A stretch of DNA of 64,000 nucleotides. Source: Candidatus Obscuribacteraceae bacterium. Lineage in GTDB: Bacteria > Cyanobacteriota > Vampirovibrionia > Obscuribacterales > Obscuribacteraceae. The first letter of the stretch is position 1. Every line of letters starts with the position of its first letter. The notes beneath the pieces are model-generated. The model saw only the letters and a program-made list of their open reading frames with translations, searched no databases and was not told where the DNA came from. Position numbers and translations under genes: made by a program. The stretch spans positions 1,203,435 through 1,267,434 of the forward strand of contig JBGAHS010000002.1 in the NCBI GenBank assembly GCA_044226015.1, written 5' to 3'. Of this stretch, positions 4,678 to 20,862 are shown one piece after another.

Positions 4678-4794
4678 GTATCCTTCGATGCCGCCAGGAT
4701 GATATTGACCCCAAGCAGGATCCCAACAGACTCGCCACGCGTATCCTTCGATGCCGCCAGGATGATATTGACCCCAAGCAGGATCCCAACAGAC
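4678..4794. repeat. Exact 54-bp direct repeat x2 (63-bp period)
   Basis: gtatccttcgatgccgccaggatgatattgaccccaagcaggatcccaacagac at 4678-4731 and 4741-4794. Confidence 0.95.
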
Positions 4795-4884
4795 GGACCT
4801 AAGCAAGCACCTGTGCCAGCCAGCAGCTAGACGCGGATCCCTCCTTTAAGTAGAATCATCCTCAGCGTTTCGGGAACGTTCAGC

Positions 4885-6378
4885 TTGGACGATAATCAAA
4901 AAATTCAAAGCACTCAGACATTCGCCGAAAGGCTTGCCCTGAAGCTTGACCACAAGAATAGCGTCCCGCTATATCGGCAACTCAGTGAACGACTGCGCGA
5001 GATGATTCTCAGCCTGAAACTTATGCCAGGAGAACTCTTACCTTCGACTCGCGAACTCGCCATAGCTCTCAATGTCTCGAGAAAAACTGTTTTTCGCTGT
5101 TATGAGGACCTGCAGAGTCAGGGCTTCATCAAAACCGAATCTGGCTTAGGAACTTACGTAAACAACTCAAACTTTGCCAACACCAAGAGCACCGGCGAAA
5201 ACGTCATCCAGCACAGGCTGACCGCATATGCCCAAAGTTTGCTGAACTTGCCGGACGAACCAAGCCATCAAGGTGACCATCCCGAACTGCATTTCGGCGC
5301 TCCACCAGTGTCCGAGCTGCCACTGAGCGCATGGCGCCAAATGCTTCTAAAACAACTCAGAAAAACTGATTTAGACCAGTTCTATTATGATACGGAGGCA
5401 TTCGGTTATCTGCCCCTTCGTCAGGCACTTGCTTCTTATCTCATGCGTTCTCGCGCTCTGCATTGCGATGCTGAAAACCTTATCGTTTTTTCGCATGCTT
5501 TGAGCCCACTGCGTTTGCTCGCCAAAATCATGGTCGATGCAGGAGATTCGGTGGCAATGGAAAACCCCGGCTTCCCGTTTGCAAGACAAGTTTTTAGCTC
5601 AATCGGTGCAAAAATAATTCCAGTTGGTGTTGATGCTCAAGGATTGCGTGTACAAGAGTTAGCGGCTCTAAAAGAGCCTGTGAAGCTGGTTTATGTTACA
5701 CCATCCCATCAGGATCCCTGTGGTGTAATGATGAGTCTTGAGCGAAGAAAAGAACTGCTTGCTTGGGCAAAATCGAGCAACTGTTTGATTCTCGAAGACG
5801 ACTATGACAGCGAGTTTCGCTATACAGGCTCAACACTGCCCGCTCTAATGGCTCTTGATGAGAATGAATCGGTGATTTACATTGGCGATATGTGGAAAAC
5901 ACTGTTTCCGCTAGTAAATGTCGGTTACCTCGTTTTACCATCTGGGCTTCGTTCTGTTTTCAAAAAGGCGCAATCTATTAGTTGGACCAAAGCAAGCACC
6001 AGTCTTCCTTTTTTTGATCAGCTGGCACTTACTGATTTCATGAATGATGGTCTTCTCGAAAGACATTTGCGAAAAACCAAATCAACATACGCTAGCCGTT
6101 ACAGAAACCTCATAGTAGGACTGAGTAAGCATTTCAACAATCGAATTGACTATGCAAAAGAAAGCAGCAGCATGCAGCTGTTGATAAAGTTCAAACAACC
6201 TATAAGTGATTCAGAGGTAAAAGCAACTTCGGAAGCTGCCGGCTTATCCGTAGTCTCAACAAGAGCATATTATCAAGGCAATTTTGTTCAAAACGAGTAC
6301 TTACTTGCTTTCGTGATGCTTGAAGAAACAGAGATGAGCCGCCGCCTCAAACTCTGGTCGACTTTGCTTTTTGAATAG
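4885..6378 (+). CDS. MocR/GabR family (GntR HTH + PLP aminotransferase-like domain) transcriptional regulator
   Basis: PLYRQL...LPSTRELA..LNVSRKTV HTH; YVTPSHQDP, LEDDYDSEFRY, YIGDMWKTLFP. Confidence 0.93.
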   Translation: MDDNQKIQSTQTFAERLALKLDHKNSVPLYRQLSERLREMILSLKLMPGELLPSTRELAIALNVSRKTVFRCYEDLQSQGFIKTESGLGTYVNNSNFANTKSTGENVIQHRLTAYAQSLLNLPDEPSHQGDHPELHFGAPPVSELPLSAWRQMLLKQLRKTDLDQFYYDTEAFGYLPLRQALASYLMRSRALHCDAENLIVFSHALSPLRLLAKIMVDAGDSVAMENPGFPFARQVFSSIGAKIIPVGVDAQGLRVQELAALKEPVKLVYVTPSHQDPCGVMMSLERRKELLAWAKSSNCLILEDDYDSEFRYTGSTLPALMALDENESVIYIGDMWKTLFPLVNVGYLVLPSGLRSVFKKAQSISWTKASTSLPFFDQLALTDFMNDGLLERHLRKTKSTYASRYRNLIVGLSKHFNNRIDYAKESSSMQLLIKFKQPISDSEVKATSEAAGLSVVSTRAYYQGNFVQNEYLLAFVMLEETEMSRRLKLWSTLLFE

Positions 6379-6839: not shown

Positions 6840-9056
6840 ATGACTTTTGAAGACACTATCGGAATGTTACTAGCATTGGTTATCGTACTCGGATTTGCCT
6901 TCATGACCCTGCGGCACGAAAAGTGCCACAAACTGCAACTCAGATTCAACGAAAAGGTCTATGCACTCTCTCTCGCGGTGAACCAGTATCGCAGTCTCAA
7001 TTTCGAACTCCAACAAGGACCCAGCGGACTCAACAAAGACAATTGCAAATTCGTGAACTCCAGCCTTGAGGAACACAAAATTGCAAAAGATGCTTGGGCT
7101 AAATTCCTGAGCACCTACACACTTGCAGTTGCGAAGCTGAAAAGCGCTCAAGATTTTCAACACGAAGTGTCTGGAGTTCCAACCTGGTGGAGACTTCCAA
7201 CCTTGCTGGAAATTGCCCTGAAGAATCTCTTCGAAGGTGAATGCAAGGATTTGCCAGACAAACTGACAACAGAAGCAACTGCCGCGAGGGAAGCAATCCA
7301 ACGGTTTGTTACAGCACAAAAGACGAATGATGCGCAACTCTGCAAACTTAATAATCAAATAAGCGGGAACAGTAAGACTATCGTTCCATTGTTCGAAGAG
7401 CTGAAACTATGGGGTCCGACCAGCCCGAGGTACCAGACAGCAGTTACTAACGTGCAAGAGCAATACCTAGAGTTGGAACAGTCCCTAAAGCTGGATCCAC
7501 TTGATCCGAAACAGGAAGCTGTCGCAAATCTAGGAAAGCAGATTGCAAAGCTCACAGCGTTACTGCACAGAGCTCTGCGTCTATTCATTTCTCTTGAAGA
7601 GATGAGATACGCTGTCGTTCGGTTGGAAACGCGAATTGAGTCGATGCGAAACGACCAACCGCTTTCGACAATGACTAATGTACGTTATATCCAAAACGGA
7701 TTCACTCTGGACGAGCCTGGTTTCGAAGTACAGAGCATGCTTGATGATTGTCGAACGCTTCTGGGACTCATGGACAAAGCCCTCCTTAACAGGCGCTTGT
7801 ATTCTTTCAGTAAGTACCATAAGTTGTGTTCAACGAAAACTGAACAGTTGAAGCGTTTGCTCGCAGAAATACTGGACGACAAGTGTTTCGTAGACGAGCA
7901 GATGCAAGCGGTCAAAAAGCAATCCACTGTTGAAGACCGGAAGTCTGACAGGAAGCATTGGACCAAGATCCGCCGATTATACAAGGCTCAGCACTGGCAT
8001 GCAGCAATGCTCAGTGTGAAAGAATTCCTGCTTGAGCACACGCCACGCGTGCAAGCAAGAGAGCAAGTCGGAAAGTTGGCAGATTCTTTCGCGCAGGTAC
8101 TTCGTGTTCTGCAAGCTTATCCGAACGCGATTTCCTTCGAGCTTGATGCTGCTTTTCAGTTGATAACAACTGAGATTAGTTGTCTGCACCAGCAGGCAGC
8201 AAGCAGCAAGGCAGACTGGGCATCGCTAGCAAAGGAAGCTCAAGAACTGGACTTCCGTCTCGTGGGTTCTTCACCTGAATCACTTCTCTTCCGCGGACAG
8301 GCAGAGTTTAATGCCTACGAACAAGCTCAAACTGAGCTGAATAAGCTCATAGAGACAGTGCGCAGATTGGACGAAGAGTTTGCCTTTTGGTGTGGTGAGG
8401 AAGCCGCAAACAAACAGCAAGAGGTGCAGAAACAAGCTTCAGAACTCATCGAAGATGCGAAGATAATCAAACAAGATTGGCAGCAATTAACTGCGCAAAT
8501 TCTTAAGAACATGGAGCTCTTGGAAGAAGCAAACACTTTACTCGAATTGGCAAAGGAGAAACATAGACTTCAAGAATTGCAAATCGAAAAACTCGAAGCT
8601 CAGCTATCGACCTGTCAAAAGGACGAAGCATACAGTCGAGTGATTTGTGGCACCAAATTCGGTGCCTGCATCTACATTCAGGATGAACAGCCTCAGAAAC
8701 TGCTTGCAAAAGCAAAGGCAAGCTTGAAGGGTCGAGACTATGAATCCATGCATCTTGATCTCCAGCAGGCGCGCGCACGCCTGTCTTCAGAGAACGTTGA
8801 GGCATGGTGGTTGTGCTTACAATTGATGGCTAACAGCGATGTAGCTTGCGCGCGTTCATTCGCCCTCAAGCATGGTTACACTCCTGGAGGCTTTGATTTG
8901 TGGTCCCAAGAGAAACTGAAGACAGACCATGAAGAACTCTATGTTCCTTCAAGTCATGCCTGTGCACACAAAGGGGGAAGCGCTTATCCAGTGATCTACC
9001 CCAACGATTTTCCTGTCATGAGCGATTATGAAGGCGGGCTAGTGCCAGCCGGATGA
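6840..9056 (+). CDS. N-terminally membrane-anchored long helical/coiled-coil protein (paralog of 18173-20026)
   Basis: TM at aa ~7-23, extensive heptads; C-terminal WWLCLQLMANS..AL.HGY motif shared with the paralog. Confidence 0.75.
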   Translation: MTFEDTIGMLLALVIVLGFAFMTLRHEKCHKLQLRFNEKVYALSLAVNQYRSLNFELQQGPSGLNKDNCKFVNSSLEEHKIAKDAWAKFLSTYTLAVAKLKSAQDFQHEVSGVPTWWRLPTLLEIALKNLFEGECKDLPDKLTTEATAAREAIQRFVTAQKTNDAQLCKLNNQISGNSKTIVPLFEELKLWGPTSPRYQTAVTNVQEQYLELEQSLKLDPLDPKQEAVANLGKQIAKLTALLHRALRLFISLEEMRYAVVRLETRIESMRNDQPLSTMTNVRYIQNGFTLDEPGFEVQSMLDDCRTLLGLMDKALLNRRLYSFSKYHKLCSTKTEQLKRLLAEILDDKCFVDEQMQAVKKQSTVEDRKSDRKHWTKIRRLYKAQHWHAAMLSVKEFLLEHTPRVQAREQVGKLADSFAQVLRVLQAYPNAISFELDAAFQLITTEISCLHQQAASSKADWASLAKEAQELDFRLVGSSPESLLFRGQAEFNAYEQAQTELNKLIETVRRLDEEFAFWCGEEAANKQQEVQKQASELIEDAKIIKQDWQQLTAQILKNMELLEEANTLLELAKEKHRLQELQIEKLEAQLSTCQKDEAYSRVICGTKFGACIYIQDEQPQKLLAKAKASLKGRDYESMHLDLQQARARLSSENVEAWWLCLQLMANSDVACARSFALKHGYTPGGFDLWSQEKLKTDHEELYVPSSHACAHKGGSAYPVIYPNDFPVMSDYEGGLVPAG

Positions 9057-9088
9057 TTCGTCTTTCACGTTGCCTGAAGGGAGGCTTC

Positions 9089-11029
9089 ATGAATAGCTAT
9101 TTTTTGACTCGTCTTAGCAGCGAGCAGAAGAAAAAATTGGATGAGAAATCCATTGCCTACTTTGAATTCGCCCTCGGCGATGAGAATGGTTTGCTCCTGC
9201 AAGCTGACGCCATGGAATCAGCCCTGGAGGTTCTAGAGCTGATTGCGGAAGAACAAGTTGCCACAAACTACGAAGGTATTTTTCGTACCAGGGTAAGAGC
9301 TACTCACTCCGAACTCGCCTCAGCTGCGAACGTGGGCTCCTGGAAAGGCAAGAACAAGCATGGCATGTTGCAGATAGTTCAACAGCTGTTCTTGCCATAC
9401 TTGCAAAAACAGATCGTTTTGGAAAATCGCCACGGAGTTGTTGCACCCATCAACGATGGCAACTTCCACATTCACATCTACTCTGCACCTGTCAAAACAT
9501 CAGGTTGCAACACTCCCAAAACGATCTGGGGAATTCCCACTCAGTCCTCTAGCAATTCCTGGAGTCCAAGCGGCAAAGGGACTTGCTTCTACGACGGCAA
9601 ATACGCCGTTGCAGAACTTCTCGAGCAGAACAATCTGTATGTTTTCCATAATCTAGCGGAGAGTGGAAATGTTAATGAGGAGATGCTGTTCTCAGTTCTC
9701 CTCGATCGTGTTTTGCAACACCTGCAGCCTGAGCAATCAGAAGCCCAGGCAAAGCACCTGTTTATCGATGCTTGTTCGTACTTTCGCTGCGCTGGACTCA
9801 CCGAAGCCAGCGGTTCTGCCGACGAGCTTCAGGTATCAATCCGAGAGCTTAAGAAAGAGTTGAAGAAATGCTCACGCGCAGCCGCTGCTGAAGAACTCAA
9901 ACTTCTTCGCAATGAGAAAATTTCAACTGATGAAATCTTTGCAGCGGAATACGAGAATCTTCTCAAAGTTCCAAAAGTAACAGATGTTCAAGTTGAAAAC
10001 GGCGTCATCATCGTTTCAACAGAAGTACTTTACGCAAAGGATCCGCGATCGGACAAATATCACGAGATTGGCGCATTCAAGATTCACCTTTCACCCGAAA
10101 ATGAGAGCCCCCGCTGGTTCAATCAGACGCGGCTGGTAAAATCAATTGGTACGAAACCAATGCAAGCGGTGCACGTCTTTAACAGCGGCATGGCCTGCCT
10201 CGGAAACACAGAAGCCTTGTTCAAAGACTTGTTTAAGCAGCGAGAATGGGCGCTCGCAGCGCAGGTAGCCATAGAATTTGCCGAGAGCGTAAATCAGCGT
10301 CAGCGCGACAATGCTGGTTTACATGTAACCGAGTGGCCGGAAGCTGCTGATGCTGATGTTGCGCGCCGCGATAAACGCATCAGTCGACCCAAAAAGTTAA
10401 CTGATGCACAACTCGCGTACAAGCCGCAGTACATCTCTGCTTGTGCCGATCGTGTGAACTCGCTGATTAAAGATTCTCTCTGTCAGATCGAATCGATACG
10501 CAGAACAGTTGAAGAACTTCAAGCTGAGCTCGTTTCCCTTTTGCGGAACCGCGCCTCAAAATTGAAACAGGCGACTCGTAAGAAACTCTGCAATCGAGAT
10601 GAAATTGCAGCGGAATTCGACGCGCTGTTAAGAGTCCCGAAAGTAACTGGCGTTCGTGTACAAGATCGCAGTGTCACAATTTCGACTGAGACACTGTTTT
10701 GCACCTGTCCAAATTCCAAACTCAAACGAGAAATTGGCAGTTTCCTGATCAAAATCAATCTGGATGGAAGCGGAGATTGCGTGCGCTGGATAAATACCAG
10801 CCGCCAGGTCAAAGCTCTCTTTCAGAAGCAAAACGCCGTCCGAGTGCTAAGTAGCGGGCGTGCGCTGTTCAGCGATATTCGCGAATCCTTCCCGGATCTG
10901 ATTGCTGACTTCAAGTTGGCAATTCTTGCACAGCTGGCAATTGAATTCATCGAACAAATTGATGCCGATGAGCCAGCTTCCTCTTTCCTTGATCAATGGC
11001 CAGAGTCCCAAACCTCAGGAGCAATCTAA
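9089..11029 (+). CDS. Prokaryotic E2-fold protein with two tandem coiled-coil+E2 modules (first active-type, second inactive)
   Basis: RBS gggagg before ATG 9089; repeat period 223 aa; module 1 AVHVFNSGMACLGN (His and Cys, Cys codon 10196), module 2 AVRVLSSGRALFSD; adjacent JAB, ThiF and Ubl genes. Confidence 0.75.
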   Translation: MNSYFLTRLSSEQKKKLDEKSIAYFEFALGDENGLLLQADAMESALEVLELIAEEQVATNYEGIFRTRVRATHSELASAANVGSWKGKNKHGMLQIVQQLFLPYLQKQIVLENRHGVVAPINDGNFHIHIYSAPVKTSGCNTPKTIWGIPTQSSSNSWSPSGKGTCFYDGKYAVAELLEQNNLYVFHNLAESGNVNEEMLFSVLLDRVLQHLQPEQSEAQAKHLFIDACSYFRCAGLTEASGSADELQVSIRELKKELKKCSRAAAAEELKLLRNEKISTDEIFAAEYENLLKVPKVTDVQVENGVIIVSTEVLYAKDPRSDKYHEIGAFKIHLSPENESPRWFNQTRLVKSIGTKPMQAVHVFNSGMACLGNTEALFKDLFKQREWALAAQVAIEFAESVNQRQRDNAGLHVTEWPEAADADVARRDKRISRPKKLTDAQLAYKPQYISACADRVNSLIKDSLCQIESIRRTVEELQAELVSLLRNRASKLKQATRKKLCNRDEIAAEFDALLRVPKVTGVRVQDRSVTISTETLFCTCPNSKLKREIGSFLIKINLDGSGDCVRWINTSRQVKALFQKQNAVRVLSSGRALFSDIRESFPDLIADFKLAILAQLAIEFIEQIDADEPASSFLDQWPESQTSGAI

Positions 11030-12240
11030 TGTATTTTTCAAGAAGAGAACAGCCTCTTACACCCCACAGTTTCAATACGCAGGTCAGGTTTCTGCCCAAA
11101 GCAGAACCGAAGAAACCGCGAATTGTTCTTTCCCGACTAGCATTTGCACAGATGACTGTGTATGTGAAAATCGCACAGGAAGAAGTCGGTTGGATGGGCA
11201 CAGTGAAGCGCCTTCCAGATGGTGACTTTCTGATTGAAAAGTGTTTCTTGTTCAAGCAGAAGGTCCATGCAACTGAAACTGAAATCAGCACAGAAGGATT
11301 CTCTGAACTCTCAATGGAGCTGCTCAACACAGCGACTGATGACGAAGACGAATCGAACTGGGAGGTGAACAAGCTCCGTTTCTGGGGTCATTCACACGTC
11401 AGAATGGCTACAGGACCCTCAGACACAGACCAGCGTGCGATGCTCACCTCATTCGGCAAGGGACACTCTAACAACACCGGGCAGCTTCGTTTTTGCTTCG
11501 AAGAATGCGGTTATCCTTGGGTGATTCGCGGTATCTTCAACAAATTCGGTGAAGCGAACTTTGATGTTTATCTTTATTCTGAAGGCTTGCACTTTGCGGA
11601 CGTTGAGTGGACGGTAGAAGACCCTAGCGCAGAAGAGATTGCTTTACAGAAGCAGGTCGATACGCTCTGTTTAGCCATCCAAACAGGACTGTTTCCAAAT
11701 AAAGAAACAACAAAACCTGCCAAGGTTGCCACTCTCGGAGAGCCTGAGTCCGACTCAAGCGTCTGTCCTCAAAGGAAGAGTCCTAATACCTTCGGTTTTG
11801 GCATCGATCGTGAACTGAGGTATTGGCCTCACATTACTCCGGAATTGCGTACCGCCATTCAACAAGAATTCGACAAGAAGGTTGTAAGTGTGCGTCGTCA
11901 TTCAGAAGAGCCGCAGCAAACGAAATCCGGATGGCGGTCCATGTTTCAACAACGTACTAGCAGCGCACAGGTTCAAACCAACTCTGCAGATTCCTCAACT
12001 TCGACCGAGCAATATCCAAGCGAGTTCGGTGATGAAGTCTACGGGCGAGGCTCAGCTCCCGACATGGGCTCAGCCTCTGCAAGACCAGCTCTTCAAATCG
12101 GCAAAGAACATCGAGCCGAAACACCGCGAACAAATGAAGTGCGGTGGATTGCACCAAAACCAAAAGAAACGCCCAAAACGACCAGCATTTCTGAAACCTT
12201 GCGCACGGCATGGAGCGAGCTCCTCGACTTCCTCTCCTAG
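11029..12240 (+). CDS. JAB/MPN+ metallopeptidase with long disordered C-terminal tail
   Basis: EEVGW...WGHSHVRMATGPSDTD = E..HxH..PSxxD; ATG overlaps the upstream stop (taatg). Confidence 0.88.
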   Translation: MYFSRREQPLTPHSFNTQVRFLPKAEPKKPRIVLSRLAFAQMTVYVKIAQEEVGWMGTVKRLPDGDFLIEKCFLFKQKVHATETEISTEGFSELSMELLNTATDDEDESNWEVNKLRFWGHSHVRMATGPSDTDQRAMLTSFGKGHSNNTGQLRFCFEECGYPWVIRGIFNKFGEANFDVYLYSEGLHFADVEWTVEDPSAEEIALQKQVDTLCLAIQTGLFPNKETTKPAKVATLGEPESDSSVCPQRKSPNTFGFGIDRELRYWPHITPELRTAIQQEFDKKVVSVRRHSEEPQQTKSGWRSMFQQRTSSAQVQTNSADSSTSTEQYPSEFGDEVYGRGSAPDMGSASARPALQIGKEHRAETPRTNEVRWIAPKPKETPKTTSISETLRTAWSELLDFLS

Positions 12241-12315
12241 AACGGTCGATAGAGCTTAGTGTTCTCAGATTCTATTTCAACAAAAACCACACACACTTTT
12301 TTGAAAGTAGTACAC

Positions 12316-13002
12316 ATGATTGATACGCAACGACATCTGTCAGTTTTTGATCCAGATGCTTTTGGCAGCAAGATTGTCGACGTAATCGGTGTCGGTGCTA
12401 CCGGCTCGAAGGTTGTACTCAGCCTGGCTAAGCTGGGCATCCAAAACATTCGTGCATGGGACGCCGACGTTCTCGAAGCGCACAACATCTGCAACCAGGC
12501 ATACGCAAAAGAAGATATCGGCCTGAAAAAGGTCGAAGCTCTGAAGGAAATGGTCTGGCGCCAAGCCGGCTTGAACCTGGATGCAAGAGCTGAATATGTT
12601 GACGGCACACAAGAACTCGGTCCAATCGTATTCTTGCTAACCGACACTATGTCCTCCCGCAAGAAGATCTGGGAAGGCAGCTTGCGCTTCAAATCGCGTG
12701 TCAAGCTAGTGGTGGAAACCCGCCTTGGCGCTGAGTCGTCGTACATTTACAGTATCAACCCTTGCTCACTGCCTGAAGTACAGGGTTGGGAAAGCACACT
12801 CTGCGATGACGATAAAGTTGAGCGCTCCGCATGTGGAAGCAAGATTTCCGTCGGTCCCAGCGCTGGAATTCTCGCAGAGAAGGCTGTATGGCAATTGATT
12901 CGCTGGTTCGCCATCGAGAACGGTCAGGATGACGTTCTTGACCATGAGATCATCGAGTCCTTCCGTCCACCTGCAATCTACACCAGACAGTTCGAAGATT
13001 GA
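12316..13002 (+). CDS. ThiF/E1-like Ubl-activating enzyme
   Basis: VIGVGATGS (GxGxxG), DADVLEAHNICNQ, GLKKV, LTDT, ETRLG; candidate catalytic Cys in ERSACG (codon 12832); no CxxC Zn site. Confidence 0.9.
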   Translation: MIDTQRHLSVFDPDAFGSKIVDVIGVGATGSKVVLSLAKLGIQNIRAWDADVLEAHNICNQAYAKEDIGLKKVEALKEMVWRQAGLNLDARAEYVDGTQELGPIVFLLTDTMSSRKKIWEGSLRFKSRVKLVVETRLGAESSYIYSINPCSLPEVQGWESTLCDDDKVERSACGSKISVGPSAGILAEKAVWQLIRWFAIENGQDDVLDHEIIESFRPPAIYTRQFED

Positions 13003-13202
13003 GAGAATTTGACTCCAAACAGATCTTCATCAGCAGAACCGCCACCGCTATCGGTGGCTTAGCCTTCAACCGATAGCGCCTGGCGACGTTATCGACTGAA
13101 GACACAAAACTGGATGCGACAGCGCTCAGCTCTGCATCCAAGACAACTTAACTAAAAACTCTATCCAAGACATACTCATCCTTTACGAAAGAGCAGTTAA
13201 AC

Positions 13203-13457
13203 ATGTCCACTGAAAACAGTAATAAAAACGGTGTCGATAGCGCTCCTGAAATGCTCAGCGTGCGAGTCGGCAAAATGCCTGGCAACATCACAATCAAGAA
13301 GGTCTCCCCAGGCTCAACAGCGGCTGACGTGTTGCGCATGGCAGACCTTGACCCCAGCGACCACGAAGTGCGTGTCAATGGAGTTCCAGCCAACCTGACT
13401 CAAAAATTGCGGCACAACGATGCGGTGTTGTTGTTCAAGCCACTGGCCGGCAACTAG
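13203..13457 (+). CDS. Ubiquitin-like (beta-grasp) protein 1, C-terminus ...LAGN
   Basis: ThiS/MoaD/Ub-like pattern (GSTAADVL, VRVNG, LRHNDAVLL); directly follows E1. Confidence 0.85.
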   Translation: MSTENSNKNGVDSAPEMLSVRVGKMPGNITIKKVSPGSTAADVLRMADLDPSDHEVRVNGVPANLTQKLRHNDAVLLFKPLAGN

Positions 13458-13554
13458 CAAAACGACACGCATCAATTCTCAAGCAGGAGTGCCTTCTGAC
13501 ACTCCTGCAATCGATTCTACACATCCAAAACTATTGAAGGAAAAGAGATAAAGC

Positions 13555-14478
13555 ATGGGAACTTTCATTAATGTGTTCGTTCTTGGACCACTCCTGGGAC
13601 TGCTTACTATTCAGTTGCTGGCTCGGGTACACCAAATCAAGAATCGTGTTTTGCCGAAGCCCAAGAATGAGCTGCGAGTGCTAGTAAATGGCGTCGCTGT
13701 GATTTTCGAACTGATTGGCATGTGCGCAATCAGCATGTTTTTGGGCGCCGGAATTCTCGCTCTGTCAGTGCCAATGCTGTTGATCGCTCAGCTTATCATT
13801 GCCGGTGAAGATGCTGGCGAAGATAACGTCAAAGCAAAAATGGTTATTGAAACCTACCAGCGATGGTCTACCAGGTTCAAGCTCGTCGCCCAGATTACGT
13901 TCAATCATGGACGGGTGCTAGTACAATCGTACACAAGTAGCCGTTCTCCTCGATCCTCCGAGAACGCAACAGTCGGCACGACAGAAAAAACTCCTACCCG
14001 TGCTGAGCCGATTAGCTGCCCACGAAAACCATTGAGTGAGCAAGAATTGCTACAGCAACTGGTGGCAAAGGTTGCACAGTTACAACAATGGGCATCGCGC
14101 CCAGAATCTGACCGTGTAGCCGTTGCTGAACTGACAAAGCAGGCGCGCGACCTGGAGGAAGCACTCAATGCTGAAGTGCAAAAGCTTGAAACCGGCACCA
14201 CCGACTGGAAAGACATCTGCTCTCACATCGAAGGTCTAAACCGCCATCAGCTACCGGCAGAGCTATCCAGCGCACTCAATGAACTGGTTCAAGAGCGTGC
14301 CGCCAAGCTTGACACCAATCGGGATGATGTTGCTCTGCTTTCGAGCGAGTTGCGCGCCACAGCAGACAACCTGAAGCAAAAGCTCACCACGCGGTCTCTC
14401 TCTCCTGAAGAAGTGATCAGCTCTGCTAATGCAGCACTGGATTCGGCTGAGCAAGTCTGCTCAAAATCCCAAAGCTAA
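13555..14478 (+). CDS. Membrane protein (about 3 TM) with C-terminal coiled-coil domain homologous to downstream CC proteins
   Basis: Hydrophobic N-terminus; C-terminal LQQLVAKVAQLQ...SPEEVISSANAALDSAEQV aligns to LNDVLAQVQKLQ...SAEDAILDAEAAIAEAAQV. Confidence 0.75.
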   Translation: MGTFINVFVLGPLLGLLTIQLLARVHQIKNRVLPKPKNELRVLVNGVAVIFELIGMCAISMFLGAGILALSVPMLLIAQLIIAGEDAGEDNVKAKMVIETYQRWSTRFKLVAQITFNHGRVLVQSYTSSRSPRSSENATVGTTEKTPTRAEPISCPRKPLSEQELLQQLVAKVAQLQQWASRPESDRVAVAELTKQARDLEEALNAEVQKLETGTTDWKDICSHIEGLNRHQLPAELSSALNELVQERAAKLDTNRDDVALLSSELRATADNLKQKLTTRSLSPEEVISSANAALDSAEQVCSKSQS

Positions 14479-14514
14479 GTAGCACACAAGCACGATGACA
14501 TAGATTTCGTCTAA

Positions 14515-14572
14515 CAGCAGGTCGCAATGTCTGCTGGGCTCCCAAAAGGCAGGCCCAAACGGGCCTGTCTTT
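14515..14572 (+). other. Two-hairpin intergenic RNA element, copy 1
   Basis: cagcag/ctgctg stem and aaaggcaggccc-aaac-gggcctgtcttt stem; conserved with compensatory changes in copy 2. Confidence 0.55.
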
Positions 14573-14630
14573 CTGGAAATTTGTACACACTCAAAATGTT
14601 CACAAGCACACCTAACTGAAAGAACCGAAA

Positions 14631-15164
14631 ATGGGACTCTACACAGCCAAGACTAACTCAATGGAAGCGCTGAACGACGTACTGGCACAAGTACAAAAGC
14701 TCCAAGCAAATGTCGGTCTTACCGAGACAGAGCGAGCTGAACGTCAGCGCCTGCAAGCTGAAGTACAGTCAAAACAACAAGCCCTGCAAACAGCGACGCA
14801 GCGCCTGAAGTCTACGACTGAGATTTGCGAGCAAACCGCGGCACGTATCCAGACGATCGCTGATATCAGCGCTTCCCTTGGCACCGAAATGGCTGCATTG
14901 CCAACTGACCTGCAGACTCAATGCGCCGCCGTGAACGACCATTTGACTGGCTTGTCCTCTAAGCTGTCCGAACTGGCAAACTCATGCCAAAACGACAAAG
15001 CGACGGCAAGAGAAGTGGTCGAGCAAAAGAAAGGCGAACTCCAGTCTGCCAAGGAAGCTCTCCTCGCTGATATCAACAAGCAACGCCCTTCAGCTGAAGA
15101 CGCCATTCTTGATGCAGAAGCAGCAATCGCCGAAGCGGCACAAGTCTCATCGAACCAGGACTAA
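14631..15164 (+). CDS. Soluble coiled-coil protein CC1
   Basis: 177 aa, A/E/Q/L-rich heptads; near-identical paralog at 15711. Confidence 0.85.
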   Translation: MGLYTAKTNSMEALNDVLAQVQKLQANVGLTETERAERQRLQAEVQSKQQALQTATQRLKSTTEICEQTAARIQTIADISASLGTEMAALPTDLQTQCAAVNDHLTGLSSKLSELANSCQNDKATAREVVEQKKGELQSAKEALLADINKQRPSAEDAILDAEAAIAEAAQVSSNQD

Positions 15165-15251
15165 AGTTCCCGTCCGAGTTCAAATTCGCTCAGCCCATGT
15201 TTATTGCCTGTAACCATTTCACAAAATCCTCTTGTAACAGGACAGCTATAG

Positions 15252-15503
15252 ATGACCATCAACAAAAACAACAGCGGCGTTGAGCCCACTCCAGAGATGC
15301 TCAGTGTGCGAGTCGGCAAAATGCCTGGCAATATCACAATCAAGAAAGTCTCAACCGGTTCAACAGCTTCTGACGTGTTGCGCATGGCAGACCTTGATCC
15401 GACCGATCACGAAGTGCGTGTCAACGGAGTTCCTGCCAATTTGACTCAAGAGCTGCGTCATAACGATGCGGTGTTGTTATTCAAGCCTCTGGCGGGCAAC
15501 TAG
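15252..15503 (+). CDS. Ubiquitin-like protein 2, C-terminus ...LAGN
   Basis: 66/70 aa identical to Ubl1 from PEMLSV to the end, with many synonymous differences. Confidence 0.85.
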   Translation: MTINKNNSGVEPTPEMLSVRVGKMPGNITIKKVSTGSTASDVLRMADLDPTDHEVRVNGVPANLTQELRHNDAVLLFKPLAGN

Positions 15504-15554
15504 CAACAGGCTCTGCAGTCAGCTGAGCAAGTTTGCTCAAAATCCCAAAGCTAA
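15504..15554 (+). pseudogene. 3' remnant of a deleted second copy of the TM-coiled-coil gene
   Basis: Reads QQALQSAEQVCSKSQS*, versus NAALDSAEQVCSKSQS* at the end of 13555-14478. Confidence 0.75.
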
Positions 15555-15593
15555 GTTGTGCTTACAAAGCACAATGATATCGATTTGGTCTAA

Positions 15594-15652
15594 CAGCAGA
15601 TCGCAATGTCTGCTGGATTCCCAACAGACAGACCCAAACGGGTCTGTCTGTT
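15594..15652 (+). other. Two-hairpin intergenic RNA element, copy 2
   Basis: cagcaga/tctgctg stem and aacagacagaccc-aaac-gggtctgtctgtt stem. Confidence 0.55.
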
Positions 15653-15710
15653 TGCAAATTTGTACACAGTGTCAAATGTTCACAAGCACACCTAACTGAA
15701 AGAACCGAAA

Positions 15711-16241
15711 ATGGGACTCTACACCAAGGCTGACTCAATGGAAGCGCTGAACGACGTACTGGCTCAAGTAAAGAAGCTGCAAGCAGAAACCAGCCTCACC
15801 GAGACAGAGCGTGCTGAACGTCAGCGCCTGCAAGCTGAAGTACAGTCAAAACAACAAGCCCTGCAAACAGCGACGCAGCGCCTGAAGTCTACGACTGAGA
15901 TTTGCGAGCAGACCGCGGCACGTATCCAAACTATCGCTGACATTGCAGCGTCACTCAGCACCGAAATGGCTGCATTGCCAACGGACCTGCAGACTCAATG
16001 CACCGCCGTGAACGACCATTTGACCGGCTTATCCACTAAGTTGTCCGAACTGGCAAACTCATGTCAAAACGACAAATCGGCGGCCAGAGAAGCGGTAGAG
16101 CAAAAGAAAGGCGAGCTGCAGTCTGCAAAGGAAGCTCTCCTCGCTGATATCAACAAGCAACGCCCTTCAGCTGAAGACGCCATTCTTGATGCAGACGCAG
16201 CAATCGCCGAAGCAGCACGAGTCTCAGCGAACCAGAACTAA
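15711..16241 (+). CDS. Soluble coiled-coil protein CC2
   Basis: 176 aa, duplicate of CC1 including the upstream region (ctgaaagaaccgaaaatgggactc). Confidence 0.85.
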   Translation: MGLYTKADSMEALNDVLAQVKKLQAETSLTETERAERQRLQAEVQSKQQALQTATQRLKSTTEICEQTAARIQTIADIAASLSTEMAALPTDLQTQCTAVNDHLTGLSTKLSELANSCQNDKSAAREAVEQKKGELQSAKEALLADINKQRPSAEDAILDADAAIAEAARVSANQN

Positions 16242-16343
16242 AGTTCTCGCCTAGTTTACCCTGGCAAATAGCATCCAACTACATGAATGCTATTTGCCTC
16301 TCTACGAATTTCCACCAAATCCGTTAACAACGAAAGACATCAA

Positions 16344-17126
16344 ATGAGCCAATCATCCTATTTCCTGCCAGCCTTGACTGCCGCAGACGCACAAACCCTG
16401 GAAGCTGCTGGCTGCATCTGTGCATTGACCACAATCAACCATGAGACTGGATACATCATCAATCCTGGAGACCTGGAATTGGCAATCCAGCGCTTGAACG
16501 CCGTAGTCGATCAAATGAATTCGACAGGTCAGTTCGGCGTCATGCGCGTGACTCTCCTTCGCACAGACGTAGCGACGGCTCGCACGAAGCAGCGAGGCAC
16601 TTCTTCGAAAGATAGCTCTATGGAAGCGCTGTCCACTGTACTTGCCCAGGTGCAACGGCTTCAGGCGCAGGTCAATCTCACAGACACTGAACGTGATGAA
16701 CGTCTACGCTTACAAGCTGAAGTTCAGTCGAAACAGAAAGATCTGGAAACCGCAACTCAGCGCCTGAAGTCAACTGTTGCGATCTACAATCAAACCGCAG
16801 CGCGCATTCGTACAATCGCAGAAATTGCGGGTGCACTGGGCACAGAAATGGAAGCTTTGCCTGCTGAACTGCAGGGTCAATGCAGCTCTGTCAACGAGCA
16901 TCTAAACGGTCTGGCAGCCAAACTCACCGATCTGGCAAATTCCTGCCAAAACGACAAAGCCGCAGCGCTGCAAGCAGTCGAGGGAAAGAAATCCGAGCTT
17001 CAAGCCGCTAAGGATGCTCTGGTCAACGACATGAGCAAGAAACGAGTTTCGGCTGAAGAAGCCCTGCTCGATGCAGAAACCGCGCTCAACGACGCAGAGA
17101 GCGTCGCATTCAAGCAACAAAGTTGA
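16344..17126 (+). CDS. Coiled-coil protein CC3 with an N-terminal ~70-aa domain shared with the E2 protein
   Basis: From SMEAL onward it aligns with CC1/CC2; N-terminal SYFL..L domain aligns gaplessly to 9095-9304. Confidence 0.82.
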   Translation: MSQSSYFLPALTAADAQTLEAAGCICALTTINHETGYIINPGDLELAIQRLNAVVDQMNSTGQFGVMRVTLLRTDVATARTKQRGTSSKDSSMEALSTVLAQVQRLQAQVNLTDTERDERLRLQAEVQSKQKDLETATQRLKSTVAIYNQTAARIRTIAEIAGALGTEMEALPAELQGQCSSVNEHLNGLAAKLTDLANSCQNDKAAALQAVEGKKSELQAAKDALVNDMSKKRVSAEEALLDAETALNDAESVAFKQQS

Positions 17127-17197
17127 AGCAGCTTTGGCTTTCTATCTCTCTCGCCTGTCTTAACGACTTCCTCACTGGCTCGATGCGAGTGAGCTCA

Positions 17198-17230
17198 GGA
17201 AAAGACCGATGTTAATCGTCGGTCTTTTCC
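17198..17230 (+). terminator. Probable terminator closing the Ub-like operon
   Basis: ggaaaagaccga...tcggtcttttcc inverted repeat. Confidence 0.6.
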
Positions 17231-17361
17231 ATTATGATCAAAAATTGCCTACGAATTCCTGAATCGAAAGAAAACGGATCCGAACGGCAGAAAGGGCGCG
17301 AGCATTGCTTGCGTCCTTTCCTATTTTCCTTGAAAATGACTTTTGAATGAAAGAGTTACTT

Positions 17362-17838
17362 ATGAAGCGCTTTGCTCTGGTACTTTTGTCTCTAGTTTCG
17401 TTCGGGCTTGTTGGCTGTGGAAACAATAGACACTTCGATGAAATCCCAAGCTTCGGCGAAAGCAAATTCGAGCAACTCGACCGCAATCACGACGGAACAG
17501 TTGTCGAAAGCGAACTTCTGGAAGCAGCGACTGCGCCTGAATTCAACGAATCCGAACGAGAACTCATCAAGTCAATACACGAGAATATCGCGGGAATCGG
17601 CCACATCACAGCAAGCGAGGAGTTCACTCACGAAGCTTCGGATGGCGGAACGTTCGTAAAAGTGCATCATTCCCACGGGATAGATCAGTTTGAGTTTAAG
17701 GAACTCGGCGAAAATCAGCAGATTAGACGAACAAACATGAAAGTACTGCTGCTTGTGTACATCGTGATTTGTCTAACAATTTCTACGGGCATGTGCTTTG
17801 GAGAGCGGATGCAAAAGGAACGACAAGGCGCGTCATGA
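17362..17838 (+). CDS. Lipoprotein with EF-hand-like loop and C-terminal TM
   Basis: Signal peptide with LVGC lipobox; DRNHDGTVVESE (DxNxDGxxxxxE); hydrophobic C-terminal segment. Confidence 0.7.
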   Translation: MKRFALVLLSLVSFGLVGCGNNRHFDEIPSFGESKFEQLDRNHDGTVVESELLEAATAPEFNESERELIKSIHENIAGIGHITASEEFTHEASDGGTFVKVHHSHGIDQFEFKELGENQQIRRTNMKVLLLVYIVICLTISTGMCFGERMQKERQGAS

Positions 17839-18100
17839 TCACTCCGTCCTCATGTGCTTAAGCCTTTTCCGCTGAACCTACACAAAATGCAGGGAGACAG
17901 GATCAGAAATCCTCCTCCCTGATTTACTCCTCGAAATACCAATTAGTGGCAAGCTGCCTGGTTTTTCGAGGAGACTTTCATAAACGATTATAAAAACAGC
18001 ACACCTACTACTCGCATTAGTACCCGAGTCCTGAAATAAAGTAGCAAAGAAGACCAAGTTCAAAAGTCCTCGTAGAGCATTTCAGAAGATGGAAAGCGAA

Positions 18101-18134
18101 GAGGGCGGGACAAGCTTACGCTCATCCCGCCCTC
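18101..18134 (-). terminator. Terminator downstream of 18173-20026
   Basis: gagggcggga...tcccgccctc; T-rich tract follows on the minus strand. Confidence 0.55.
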
Positions 18135-18172
18135 CCGCATCAGCTCAGTTTAGCCATAAGCCAAACTAAAGC

Positions 18173-20026
18173 TTAGTTCCACGGTGCCTTGAAATCAGGA
18201 GCAGGCCCGAAGTCAGCGCCACCACCATTGGTGCCGTTCAAATCGGGTTGCCACAGACCTCCGGCCGAGGTGGCACGCTTGCTGACAAAACCGTCGACCC
18301 ATTCCGTGCAGGTTTTGTCATCGCGGTAACCGTTGTTCCAGGCAGTGCGCTGGGCAACCCGGTCGTTGCTGTTCCGCATTTGCCGCAGAAGATTGAACCA
18401 GCCAATGTTATTGACTGCCCCAAGCTCTTTGCGCAATGAACGGACAGCCTCAGAATAACCGACCTGCTCGCCAGCACGCCAGGCGCGAACAGCCGCATCG
18501 TAGCGAGCCGAAGCCTCATCGAGGTGGCTGCTAAAATTGCTGTCGCGTCGGCTTGCATCTGCACCGCTGTAGTTCCGTCCATTGATGGTGCAGCTAAAGG
18601 CGTTCCACGCGCTGCTCTGCTTGAGCTGGGTCTTCAGCTCGGACAACTCATCCCACTTCTTGTTGTCGTCGTTGACTGCCTGCTTCGCATCCTTCAACTT
18701 CTGGATGCCGTCTTCTGCGTCTCGCTTCACCTGACGCCAATCCTGCTTGGTCAAGCGAATCTGACGTTCGATGCGAGTAGAGATGTCGTTTATAACGTTG
18801 ACCTTCTGCTTCGTTGCATCAGTCAATTCGTTATGCAGACTTTGAGACAGGAAGCTCAACGGAGGGGTTCCGTTGCGATCCGCATCTTCAAAGTCACGAC
18901 GGAAGTTCTTCACGGCAACCAGCGCATCATCGTAATCACGACGAGACTGCACAGCCTCGTCGCGAACAGCGTTCAACGACTTCTCAATACTCTGACCACT
19001 GGACTTCAGGTCAGTCCAATTAGAGTGGTCTTGCTTGAGCGACTCAGCAAGGCTGTTGAGCTGATTCTTCAGCGACTCGAACTTCTGGTCAGTGCTCGTC
19101 GAAGTGAAGTTCGCATTGTCTTCCAACGAGCGCGCAACATCTCGCTGCAGACGCTGACAGTACGCAACTACCTCACGCGTTTCGCGGCGATCCTCAATGC
19201 GCTGATTAAGCGCATCCATCCGACGAGCTGCACTCACGAACTTGTGTTCGAAGTAAGCTGCCTTGACGGAAGATTCGTAGCTGCTATCGCTGCCCTCGGA
19301 CTTCTGCAAAATCGCCGTCAATTCACTCTCTACCCGCTTCTTAGAGCTGAAAGCGCGATCGATGCAAGCAGTGGCGGACGCAGCAGAAGACTTGGCGTTT
19401 TTCAGAGAAGCAGCAGCTGAACGCGGGTCACCAGCTTCCAACGCCCCATCGATACTGTCCAGTGAGCGGCGGGCAGCCGAGATGTGCGCGTCTGGGTTGT
19501 TGTCCTCCTCTTCAAGGCGCAGCTTCTCCGAGCGCGAAGAAGTACCAGGATAGTTGAGGTCGATCGTTTGCCGGCGCGCTTGCTCAACACGCTCTTCGGC
19601 ATTGCTGAGAGCGGAACGAGCGCCGCTGTCAGTCTTCACCTCGATAGCCAGATTCAGATCAGACAGCACTGATTGGAAGTGCCCCTCCGCTTCCGCGGAG
19701 ATTTTGTCGGCGGCCTGCGGGTCGCGCGAAAGTACGGTTTCCGCCGTCTTCAGCTCACGTTCAGCCGAGTCGAAGCGACTCTGGTAGGGCTGAAACTTGA
19801 GGCCGGTTCCTGAAAGGGTGCCTTGCTGTCGCAAGATTTGCGCCTGCAGCTGGTGGCAGGCAGCGATGTGCGCCTGGCTGCTGGTTTTCGCCGCCTCGAC
19901 ATTGTGCCGATGGATGGCGTAGCCGATGATGCTGCCGATGATCACAACGGCGGCGATGGCGATAGCGATGATGACGCCCTGATTCGCCTGCCCCCGTCGA
20001 TTCCGATTCGTGTTACTCATGTTCAT
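18173..20026 (-). CDS. Membrane-anchored long helical/coiled-coil protein (paralog of 6840-9056)
   Basis: N-terminal TM (VIIAIAIAAVVIIGSIIG); KQDWRQV and WFNLLRQMRNS..AWNNGY match KQDWQQL and WWLCLQLMANS..ALKHGY. Confidence 0.8.
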   Translation of the reverse strand: MNMSNTNRNRRGQANQGVIIAIAIAAVVIIGSIIGYAIHRHNVEAAKTSSQAHIAACHQLQAQILRQQGTLSGTGLKFQPYQSRFDSAERELKTAETVLSRDPQAADKISAEAEGHFQSVLSDLNLAIEVKTDSGARSALSNAEERVEQARRQTIDLNYPGTSSRSEKLRLEEEDNNPDAHISAARRSLDSIDGALEAGDPRSAAASLKNAKSSAASATACIDRAFSSKKRVESELTAILQKSEGSDSSYESSVKAAYFEHKFVSAARRMDALNQRIEDRRETREVVAYCQRLQRDVARSLEDNANFTSTSTDQKFESLKNQLNSLAESLKQDHSNWTDLKSSGQSIEKSLNAVRDEAVQSRRDYDDALVAVKNFRRDFEDADRNGTPPLSFLSQSLHNELTDATKQKVNVINDISTRIERQIRLTKQDWRQVKRDAEDGIQKLKDAKQAVNDDNKKWDELSELKTQLKQSSAWNAFSCTINGRNYSGADASRRDSNFSSHLDEASARYDAAVRAWRAGEQVGYSEAVRSLRKELGAVNNIGWFNLLRQMRNSNDRVAQRTAWNNGYRDDKTCTEWVDGFVSKRATSAGGLWQPDLNGTNGGGADFGPAPDFKAPWN

Positions 20027-20256
20027 TGAATTCTCCGGTTTGTAGAAGAAGAAACGTGTGTTCGAACTTCCGGCTCCACCTACTCAGTGGTGCCGGCTTG
20101 GCGAACTCCAGTAGTCCGCCGCTTCCGCGTTTGAACTCCCGACTCCAACTCAGTGGGCCGGTCCTGGCTAGCTCAAGAGAGCCGCCTCTTTTGCGCGGGC
20201 TGGTCAACTCCAACGGAGTTCACCAACTATGCCTCGCGCGTCGACAATCTGGCATC

Positions 20257-20862
20257 CTAATGGTGCCGTGTCACGAAGCTGCGGGATAGTTCGCCGATGG
20301 TGCGCACAGCCACCTCGCGAGCGAATTCGGCCGGGTCTGGATTCGGGTTCTCCCAATCCAACCATGACCCTGACTCCCGCAGTACACGTGCCTGATCTGC
20401 ATCGTCGAATCCTGCCGCTTTCAGCGAACGACCGACGCGCATTCCCGCCGTGTAGGTATACCGTTCGGTTCCCTCGTAATGTCGCTTACTGCGAACGACG
20501 ACCAGCACACAGTATGTGTAGGTTGGGAACCCTCTGAGATAGCGATAAGCATCCAACTGCTGTGTCGCGACTGCTGCACCATCCATGCCACCATCTTCCT
20601 GACGAGTGAACGTCACAAAGAAAGCGACTCCGTTCTTGTTACCAAGTCGGGTCAGCTGGCGCTGGAGATTGCTGCGCTCGATGAGGGGCGAGTCGTCGTC
20701 GAAAGTCCATGATGGACTGACCCAAACTCGCTGGTCGTCGAGATAATCTTTTACTCGTGGTTTCATAAATTGCTCCGGTAGACGCAATCGAAAAAACTCT
20801 TCTAGTTCTATCGATGGAACGATAGCAGCAAGTGACCGAGGACCAACATTTGTTGGATGCAT
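20257..20862 (-). CDS. TPM (TLP18.3/Psb32/MOLO-1)-like domain protein
   Basis: LQRQLTRL..KNGVAFFVTF..DGAAVA..VLVVV..RVGRSL..FDD pattern resembles the TPM fold; start uncertain. Confidence 0.55.
   Translation of the reverse strand: MHPTNVGPRSLAAIVPSIELEEFFRLRLPEQFMKPRVKDYLDDQRVWVSPSWTFDDDSPLIERSNLQRQLTRLGNKNGVAFFVTFTRQEDGGMDGAAVATQQLDAYRYLRGFPTYTYCVLVVVRSKRHYEGTERYTYTAGMRVGRSLKAAGFDDADQARVLRESGSWLDWENPNPDPAEFAREVAVRTIGELSRSFVTRHH

Follow-up and report, generated by a model that had tools for sequence, protein, structure and literature searches.

A predicted ubiquitin-like conjugation operon linked to membrane and coiled-coil genes in an Obscuribacteraceae bacterium

Bil, Bub and the Cap2 enzymes of cyclic oligonucleotide-based antiphage signalling systems (CBASS) are, in the papers describing them, soluble, glycine-based wherever they employ a ubiquitin-like protein (Ubl), and tied to defence (PMC11601596, PMC11601603, PMC10557695). 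The E1 of Bil is described as a multidomain protein of the IAD-AAD-CYS type (PMC11601596, PMC10557695), and type 6d of Iyer (2006) is characterised by an E2 without the classical His but with one downstream of its Cys, and by a JAB-N domain in its JAB (PMC1779556). We analysed a window of 64,000 nucleotides from a Candidatus Obscuribacteraceae bacterium (assembly GCA_044226015.1, contig JBGAHS010000002.1, positions 1,203,435 to 1,267,434), in which a run of ten open reading frames (ORFs) contains genes for an E1, an E2 protein, a JAB protease and two Ubls, interspersed with genes for transmembrane (TM) and coiled-coil proteins. Judged from its sequences, the core is likely to perform protein conjugation. 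What is new here is the link of the membrane and coiled-coil genes to this Ubl core. The core family is large and occurs in Obscuribacterales, in candidate phyla radiation (CPR) bacteria and in large phages, while the subtype with TM and coiled-coil genes was found in 5 of the 107 genomes of the window's order to which all order-level counts below refer.

Core enzymes and tag of the operon

The ORF list of the window placed ten co-oriented genes between 6840 and 17126 on the + strand, followed by a terminator-like hairpin, as the first-pass annotation, read by a model from the letters of this DNA, had proposed. The most likely true starts are 9089 for the E2 gene, 11029 for JAB, 12316 for E1 and 16344 for J, the domain-coiled-coil gene; the stop of the E2 gene and the start of JAB overlap as TAATG at 11027-11031. 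The features are as follows (lengths in amino acids, aa).

6840..9056, + strand: A, 738 aa, one N-terminal TM helix (residues 6-24, by hydropathy) and a long all-helical rod
9089..11029, + strand: B, the E2 protein, 646 aa, made of N0, Nb, a helix, a putatively active UBC module, a helix and an inactive UEV-like module
~9089-9322, ~9908-10387 and ~10568-11017, + strand: N0, active UBC and inactive UEV-like parts of B
10172 and 10196, + strand: codons of His362 and Cys370, the predicted catalytic residues of the first UBC module
11029..12240, + strand: JAB, predicted JAB/JAMM metallo-isopeptidase with HSH at 11389, PSxxD at 11416 and a long variable C-terminal tail
12316..13002, + strand: E1, 228 aa, a single adenylation domain (Pfam ThiF) with crossover-loop Cys173 and without a zinc CxxC
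13203..13457, + strand: Ubl1, beta-grasp tag with a Gly-Asn end
13555..14478, + strand: F, 307 aa, two or three N-terminal TM helices (by hydropathy) and the shared coiled-coil module
14545..14572, + strand: intergenic 12-bp hairpin and short T-rich stretch (RNA fold of -25.9 kcal/mol for 14530-14580)
14631..15164, + strand: G, 177 aa, stand-alone coiled-coil module, 64% identical to the coiled coil of J
15252..15503, + strand: Ubl2, recent duplicate of Ubl1, 87% identical
15504..15554, + strand: remnant of the 3' end of F, translating to C-terminal residues of F
15711..16241, + strand: I, 176 aa, duplicate of G, 90% identical
16344..17126, + strand: J, 260 aa, an N0 domain fused to the coiled-coil module
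17198-17230 (33 nt), + strand: terminator-like hairpin, 14-bp stem, -23.4 kcal/mol

The E1 matched Pfam ThiF as a lone domain (E 9.5e-12), with GxGxxG at 12388 and Cys173 within ERSACG, and its closest named relatives were 77% identical proteins from Candidatus Obscuribacterales. The crossover-loop Cys was present in 109/109 E1s of the family and a CxxC in 0/109. A profile of 22 JAB sequences matched Rpn11 (E 1.7e-4), its Glu, HSH and SxxD falling in register with those of Rpn11, and these E, H, H, S and D residues were invariant across the 22 aligned members; no Pfam or NCBIfam JAB model matched the JAB, and the 22 JABs had no NCBIfam family in common. The description of the E1 motifs and of an intact JAB motif given in the first-pass annotation was thus upheld.

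The two modules of B are homologous (hhalign 100%). Classed by position and not by motif, His and Cys were both kept in 75/75 first modules and in 6/46 second modules, and the His lay 8 residues upstream of the Cys in 75/75 first modules; we took conservation from this count because the E2 alignment (A2) had been picked partly by motif. The second module of the window has Arg and Leu in place of His and Cys, in agreement with the tandem of active and dead E2 that had been proposed. An AlphaFold model of the first module, based on a 70-sequence alignment, reached a pLDDT of 91. The top 18 of 50 VIA-align rows were all UBC/E2 chains (best Z 7.0, root-mean-square deviation 3.8, 119 residues aligned), the best Foldseek match was an E2 (E 0.019), and a hidden Markov model (HMM) of the E2 aligned the module Cys to the catalytic Cys of UBE2L3, but with an E-value of 0.6. 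We assigned the first module to a predicted UBC fold (helix, four-strand meander, Cys-bearing flap, C-terminal helices) because the three methods agree, though each score is modest. The bacterial E2s BilB, Cap2 and BubB were absent from the 50 VIA-align rows, though they may still be kin. A single-sequence AlphaFold model of the whole E2 protein had a pLDDT of 35 and was discarded. The 70 E2 modules had no Pfam family in common, PHROGs matched only the E1, to unnamed families, and no Pfam match to RING or HECT was found in the window proteins, which bears out the earlier remark that such an E3 is missing.

Both Ubls end in LAGN, in line with the AGN end read before. The Ubl profile matched SAMP2 (E 3e-5) and also TtuB, ThiS and MoaD. 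When aligned to these relatives in the PDB, its Gly falls on the penultimate Gly of their Gly-Gly end and its Asn on the last Gly, which puts the Asn at the reactive terminal position. Pattern matching sorted 102 unique Ubl units into 82 G-N, 4 G-A, 2 S-N, 1 G-Q, 1 spurious and 12 unparsed, and inspection of these 12 gave 5 G-N, 2 A-N and 5 degenerate second domains, so that Ala or Ser replaces the Gly in 4 units that retain the Asn. About 40 of the 102 units stop exactly at the residue in the Asn position, and in the remainder the chain goes on as a short tail, as another Ubl unit or as a different domain. From this register we lean slightly towards the Asn as the reactive end of the Ubl. Poly-Ubl precursors of two to three units, each ending in Gly-Asn, were seen at L018:4335-5207, L019:4479-5225, L023:4418-5179 and L077:10687-11100; since Gly-Asn follows every unit in these precursors and in Ubl fusions, both call for a processing protease. 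In some CPR Ubl genes (L026, L034, L035, L164, L051, L057) Gly-Asn is followed either by a second, degenerate beta-grasp domain with a helical tail or by domains of other kinds.

Ubl2 and I are products of a recent tandem duplication of the segment with Ubl, F and G (88-89% DNA identity) and not a conserved feature; the second F survives as its last 16 codons at 15504-15554, and a second copy of the intergenic 12-bp hairpin lies at ~15625-15652. Relatives carry one Ubl gene, and the duplicated Ubl, taken earlier for a feature of the design, does not have that standing. An assembly artefact was considered and rejected: contigs of a second study (DNA run X2) cover the whole stretch, in all 30 bins, and span the duplication junction, so the layout does not stem from assembly. 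Runs X5 and X8 covered the stretch in short pieces only.

The locus had been drawn from 6840 to 20862. It was mostly confirmed within the narrower borders 6840-17230, with the hairpin closing the operon, whereas the 3' third, with a lipoprotein, a helical paralog and a TPM-like gene, did not belong. The lipoprotein, whose EF-hand match was weak (E 0.005), lies beyond the terminator, has a paralog elsewhere in the genome and no counterpart at other loci. The convergent genes of 617 aa (helical) and 201 aa, likewise beyond the terminator, recur as a pair in genome G006, which is without the E1 family and without the E2 family; the TPM-like character of the 201-aa gene is unproven, its Pfam TPM match being E 0.23 at best, for one of five aligned relatives, and it had no PDB match. 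Both genes (window 18173-20862, - strand; also L211, L212, L213) resemble halves of a widespread family of 840-1050 aa with a signal peptide, a TPM-like domain, a TM helix and an EzrA-like helical rod, to which A is distantly related and of which this genome has two full-length copies elsewhere. Upstream of the operon, a gene for a MocR/PdxR-type regulator lies at 4885-6378, as it does in L002:1027-2481, and it is preceded by a 63-bp direct repeat (~4680-4810), one copy of which is absent from run X2. A promoter scan gave fewer sites than were found in shuffles.

Membrane and coiled-coil genes and the wider family

Domain sharing with the core is our main ground for counting A, F, G and J among the functional components of the system. 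The coiled-coil module is common to F, G, I and J at 30-90% identity, as expected from the four coiled-coil paralogs noted before, and the N0 domain of J is the N-terminal domain of the E2: an HMM built from 84 E2-borne N0 domains found J at E 7e-10 among 12,885 ORFs. The profiles of the coiled coil and of A were built iteratively from window proteins, which makes their E-values for those proteins circular, and pairwise BLAST and the E2-only N0 profile were relied on instead. At split loci N0 heads the active and the inactive E2 alike, as expected of a pairing domain. F and J occurred in the same 5 of the 107 genomes, always at a fused double-E2 locus, and on the metagenome contig L150, while in L002 the coiled-coil module is fused directly behind the Gly-Asn of the Ubl. 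J is, by its domain make-up, a candidate bridge between the E2 and F. Searches of the PDB were uninformative for N0, for J and for the 201-aa family, and the atlas searches returned nothing for J.

Full-length orthologs of A in the order numbered 11, four of which were in the query alignment. In 10/11 A immediately precedes an E2 gene; the eleventh is cut short by the end of its contig, and its N-terminal sequence matches that of L150, where the E2 comes next. Cassettes of A-E2a-E2b without E1, JAB or Ubl in the fetched stretch were found at L155, L172, L205, L206 and L214, and the genomes with such isolated cassettes carry an E1 elsewhere, where this could be checked. Further E2a-E2b pairs, with or without A in front, lie apart from or upstream of the main operon, also at L018, L019, L023 and L025, and some genomes hold up to four E2 pairs against one or two E1s. 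EzrA is a lead only for A (atlas score 0.78; Pfam EzrA at E 0.002 for a paralog). A may serve the E2 as membrane anchor, as substrate adaptor or as a substrate. Synteny and shared domains together support the proposed link of the membrane and coiled-coil genes to the core; that the locus is "built around" membrane proteins was an overstatement: among the order's 34 genomes with the E2 family, 5 have F and J.

The E1 family and the E2 family were each found in 34/107 genomes. Beside the E1, JAB was present at 56, E2 at 51 and Ubl at 46 of 57 genome loci, and at 77, 33 and 31 of 79 viral loci, respectively, counts that include short contigs and distant E1s; A was present at 3 and the coiled-coil module at 2 of the 57 genome loci. 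The hosts were mostly Obscuribacterales/Melainabacteria and CPR bacteria, with large phage contigs in addition, and the E2 module family comprised 2,828 clusters at 50% identity (E<1e-10).

A two-ring Clp ATPase directly follows the E1 at 25/57 genome loci (L005, L007-L009, L011-L015, L018-L023, L025, L027-L030, L032, L040, L041, L044, L050), and at L151, a short contig of the window's own clade, a Clp gene follows the Ubl. The linked ATPases, of ~800 aa, form their own clade, apart from the three Clp ATPases of this genome, and their middle region is short (33-63 aa in those parsed). The (I/V)GF motif, which we take to be the ClpP-docking loop, was absent from the second-ring loop in 24/24 of them (27 rows with one duplicate and 3 unparsed, n=24 extracted) and present in ClpC-like controls. 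By these traits the linked Clp resembles a protease-independent segregase. The window locus has no Clp and this genome has no member of the linked clade. This partner, the conserved Gly-Asn register and the range of the family in CPR bacteria and phages had been missed by the first-pass annotation.

The large phage contigs L067-L070 and L097 have two JAB-E1 pairs, the second ~6-8 kb downstream, and L086 has two E2-E1 sets and a Ubl ending in Gly-Ala. A distant phage group (L113-L145, e.g. L123:11009-12157) has JAB-E1 with no Ubl or E2 detected, in many cases next to a reverse transcriptase (Pfam RVT_1 E 8e-17; 27 loci in one cluster) and an uncharacterised 484-aa protein. ThiF-like proteins 25-32% identical, annotated as thiamine biosynthesis, occur in cultured phages in GenBank (H1-H20; Xanthomonas, Erwinia, Flavobacterium). 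A Pseudohongiella record and a Thorarchaeota bin (L054, L056) have an E1, a JAB and a Gly-Asn Ubl and group with phage E1s; their DNA may be prophage or mis-binned.

A possible mechanism and its alternatives

From the observed gene content, folds, catalytic residues, domain sharing and co-occurrence we infer a Ubl conjugation cascade tethered at the inner membrane, which as a whole we give an even chance. The reactions would take place at the cytoplasmic face of that membrane. JAB would cut Ubl precursors and fusions just after Gly-Asn and would also strip the tag from targets. A homodimeric E1 would adenylate the C-terminus of the Ubl, most likely at the Asn, and would then load Cys173. The first UBC module would receive the Ubl on its Cys370, the inactive module serving as a UEV-like positioning partner, and would hand it on to a target lysine without an E3. 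Through the coiled-coil module, F as TM anchor, J as N0 adaptor and G/I would be joined, with J docking on the E2 through the shared N0, and A would be a membrane-bound adaptor or a substrate of the E2. Either A or the F-J-G assembly would hold the E2 at the inner membrane and select targets in place of an E3; provided that the core conjugates, tethering by A, F and J is fairly probable. Tagged complexes would likely be remodelled or released, as hinted by the dedicated Clp ATPase of sister loci.

Several points weigh against such a tethered cascade. Its reactions and contacts are predictions, and the membrane topology of A and F was read from hydropathy alone. The scores of the E2 fold are middling, with a Z of 7.0 that lies under the tool's caution level of 8, besides the Foldseek and HMM E-values of 0.019 and 0.6. 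F and J occur in only 5/34 E2-family genomes of the order, from two genera, and are dispensable for the core; the E1s of these five genomes group together (support 0.97), so that the F/J loci are largely one clade and the co-occurrence of F with J carries no independent weight. The N0 tree leaves the source of the N0 of J unsettled, and A is one of a broad family of helical proteins, the rest of which have no link to the system. This genome has no linked Clp, and the remodelling step is therefore drawn from sister loci only. Finally, 4 Ubl units have an Ala and 1 has a Gln behind the Gly, and type II Bil removes the residue that follows its Gly (PMC10557695); the Ubl here may, by analogy, likewise be trimmed after the Gly.

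The same genes could serve in a Bil-like anti-phage system, in which the Ubl, trimmed to the Gly or with its Asn, would be put onto incoming or assembling phage proteins and the membrane proteins would sense infection or kill the cell. This reading concerns the biological role and is compatible with membrane tethering. Bil itself acts against phages by attaching its tag to a tail protein. The four-gene logic is that of Bil (PMC10557695), the presence of the family is patchy (34/107 genomes), the up to four E2 pairs per genome look like a diversification of specificity, and members in large phages (Ubl at 31/79 viral loci) are typical of conflict genes. However, PADLOC gave 2 matches among 136 neighbouring proteins, a generic Ser/Thr kinase and one PDC-S01 candidate, the named neighbours were housekeeping genes, the multidomain Bil E1 is absent and the GC content has no mobile-element signature. 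The defence role suggested at first pass is thus unsupported by context, and we regard it as rather unlikely. Somewhat less probable still is a soluble core for which the TM and coiled-coil genes would be substrates or cargo, like ubiquitin-fused ribosomal proteins, and not a tether. That most loci are without A or the coiled-coil module, that the fusion in L002 resembles a precursor fusion and that G and I have neither TM helices nor N0 would fit such a core, whereas the N0 common to J and the E2s, and the presence of A with E2 genes that have neither an E1 nor a Ubl in their vicinity, argue for a tether.

Two further readings concern the chemistry. The E1 could act as MccB does, cyclising the C-terminal Asn to a succinimide and giving an iso-Asp, nucleotide- or lipid-linked product, with an Atg8-like lipidation at the membrane proteins. 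The Asn is conserved at the terminal position and MccB was the top PDB match of the E1 profile (38.6 bits against 33.6 for ThiF); MccB has a ThiF fold and activates a C-terminal Asn via a succinimide (PMC12250964). But the match spans only the ATP-binding region, and MccB is described there as taking a short peptide through an RRE domain, thioester-free and with neither E2 nor JAB, whereas the E1 of the window lacks an RRE, keeps an invariant Cys and is partnered by an E2 with a Cys of its own, and Ubl variants with Ala or Gln could not cyclise likewise; we consider this chemistry very improbable. PaaA was rejected as an Asn-acting analog, since the review describes Glu substrates. A sulfur-carrier or cofactor pathway of the ThiS/ThiF or MoaD/MoeB type would account for Ubl and E1 being closest to SAMP2/TtuB/ThiS and ThiF/MoeB. 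The Gly-Gly end and the CxxC pairs of such pathways are absent here, no relay enzyme (ThiG, MoaE, cysteine synthase or rhodanese) was found at E<1e-25 among 123 neighbours of 22 loci, ORFs picked by a heuristic and mostly without a match at that threshold, and an E2 with conserved His and Cys stands beside the E1 at 51/57 loci. Protein conjugation had been preferred to sulfur relay from the start, and a relay now seems extremely unlikely.

Comparison with described systems

With the exception of its ThiF domain, this conjugation family is invisible to Pfam, NCBIfam and PADLOC. No paper on it was found in the literature searched, which lacked most subscription papers, and supplementary operon tables on Bil and Bub could list members. 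The family has features otherwise known from eukaryotes: an E2 paired with a UEV, precursors made of several Ubl units, a JAB resembling Rpn11, candidate tethers to the membrane and an unfoldase dedicated to the system. Two questions could thereby be addressed in E. coli with a handful of small genes, namely Ubl conjugation through an Asn and bacterial Ubl tagging at membranes. A tentative reading, doubtful on balance, is that an Asn-conjugating Ubl system with an E2-UEV pair, its own single-pass and coiled-coil membrane adaptors and, in sister loci, a protease-independent AAA+ segregase would be a bacterial counterpart of membrane ubiquitin/p97 quality control, a cell biology beyond phage defence that is common to CPR bacteria and large phages.

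The pairing of an active UBC with an inactive UBC fold recalls Ubc13-Mms2, and an E2 held at the membrane by a single-pass anchor would recall the membrane-tethered Pex4p-Pex22p. Chains of both types were among the Foldseek and VIA-align matches of the E2 module. These likenesses go no further than analogy: A, F and J showed no sequence homology to these anchors, and the locus is without an E3. The closest solved relatives of the Ubl are archaeal SAMP2, with UbaA and JAMM1, and TtuB, where a small homodimeric E1 and a JAMM protease are alike. SAMP2 and TtuB have a Gly-Gly end and are not known to use an E2.

The layout had been said to match neither Bil nor CBASS, and it fell outside their definitions and that of Bub. 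For type II CBASS, which is defined by a CD-NTase gene and by Cap2, a fusion of E2 and E1, the E1-E2 models of PADLOC matched only the ATP-binding region of the E1, and PADLOC gave no CD-NTase match among operon or neighbour proteins. For type 6d, which we equate with PRTRC, the His was found upstream of the Cys, PRTRC_ThiF reached 31 bits against a cut-off of 144.75, and no other PRTRC model matched. Bub (6E/DUF6527) shares with this family poly-Ubl and coiled-coil-Ubl architectures and a JAB that frees the Ubl from a fusion (PMC11601596, PMC11601603). It is described with no catalytic Cys, Tyr/Ser oxyesters, Ubl-E2 and JAB-E1 or E2-E1 fusions and DUF6527, none of which was seen at the window locus, where the genes are separate, the Cys is conserved in E1 and E2, and no Pfam match to DUF6527 was found in 17 window proteins. 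Bil, types I and II (PMC10557695, PMC11601596), likewise has four separate genes, no E3 and an expected Cys relay, and in the window too Ubl, E2, JAB and E1 are encoded apart from each other within a single operon. The differences are a 228-aa E1 with a single ThiF domain in place of the multidomain Bil E1 and a location that is not near defence systems or CapH/CapP regulators. The Ubl of type II Bil has a conserved Gly and behind it a non-conserved tail that the JAB removes; here a conserved Asn follows the Gly, at the terminal-Gly position, and the JAB may cut on either side of it. The inactive second E2, the N0 and Nb domains and the TM and coiled-coil partners or Clp ATPase, seen in this family, are without a counterpart in Bil. 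The locus thus falls outside the Bil, Bub, CBASS, type 6d and sulfur-relay definitions, and in outline it would work like Bil.

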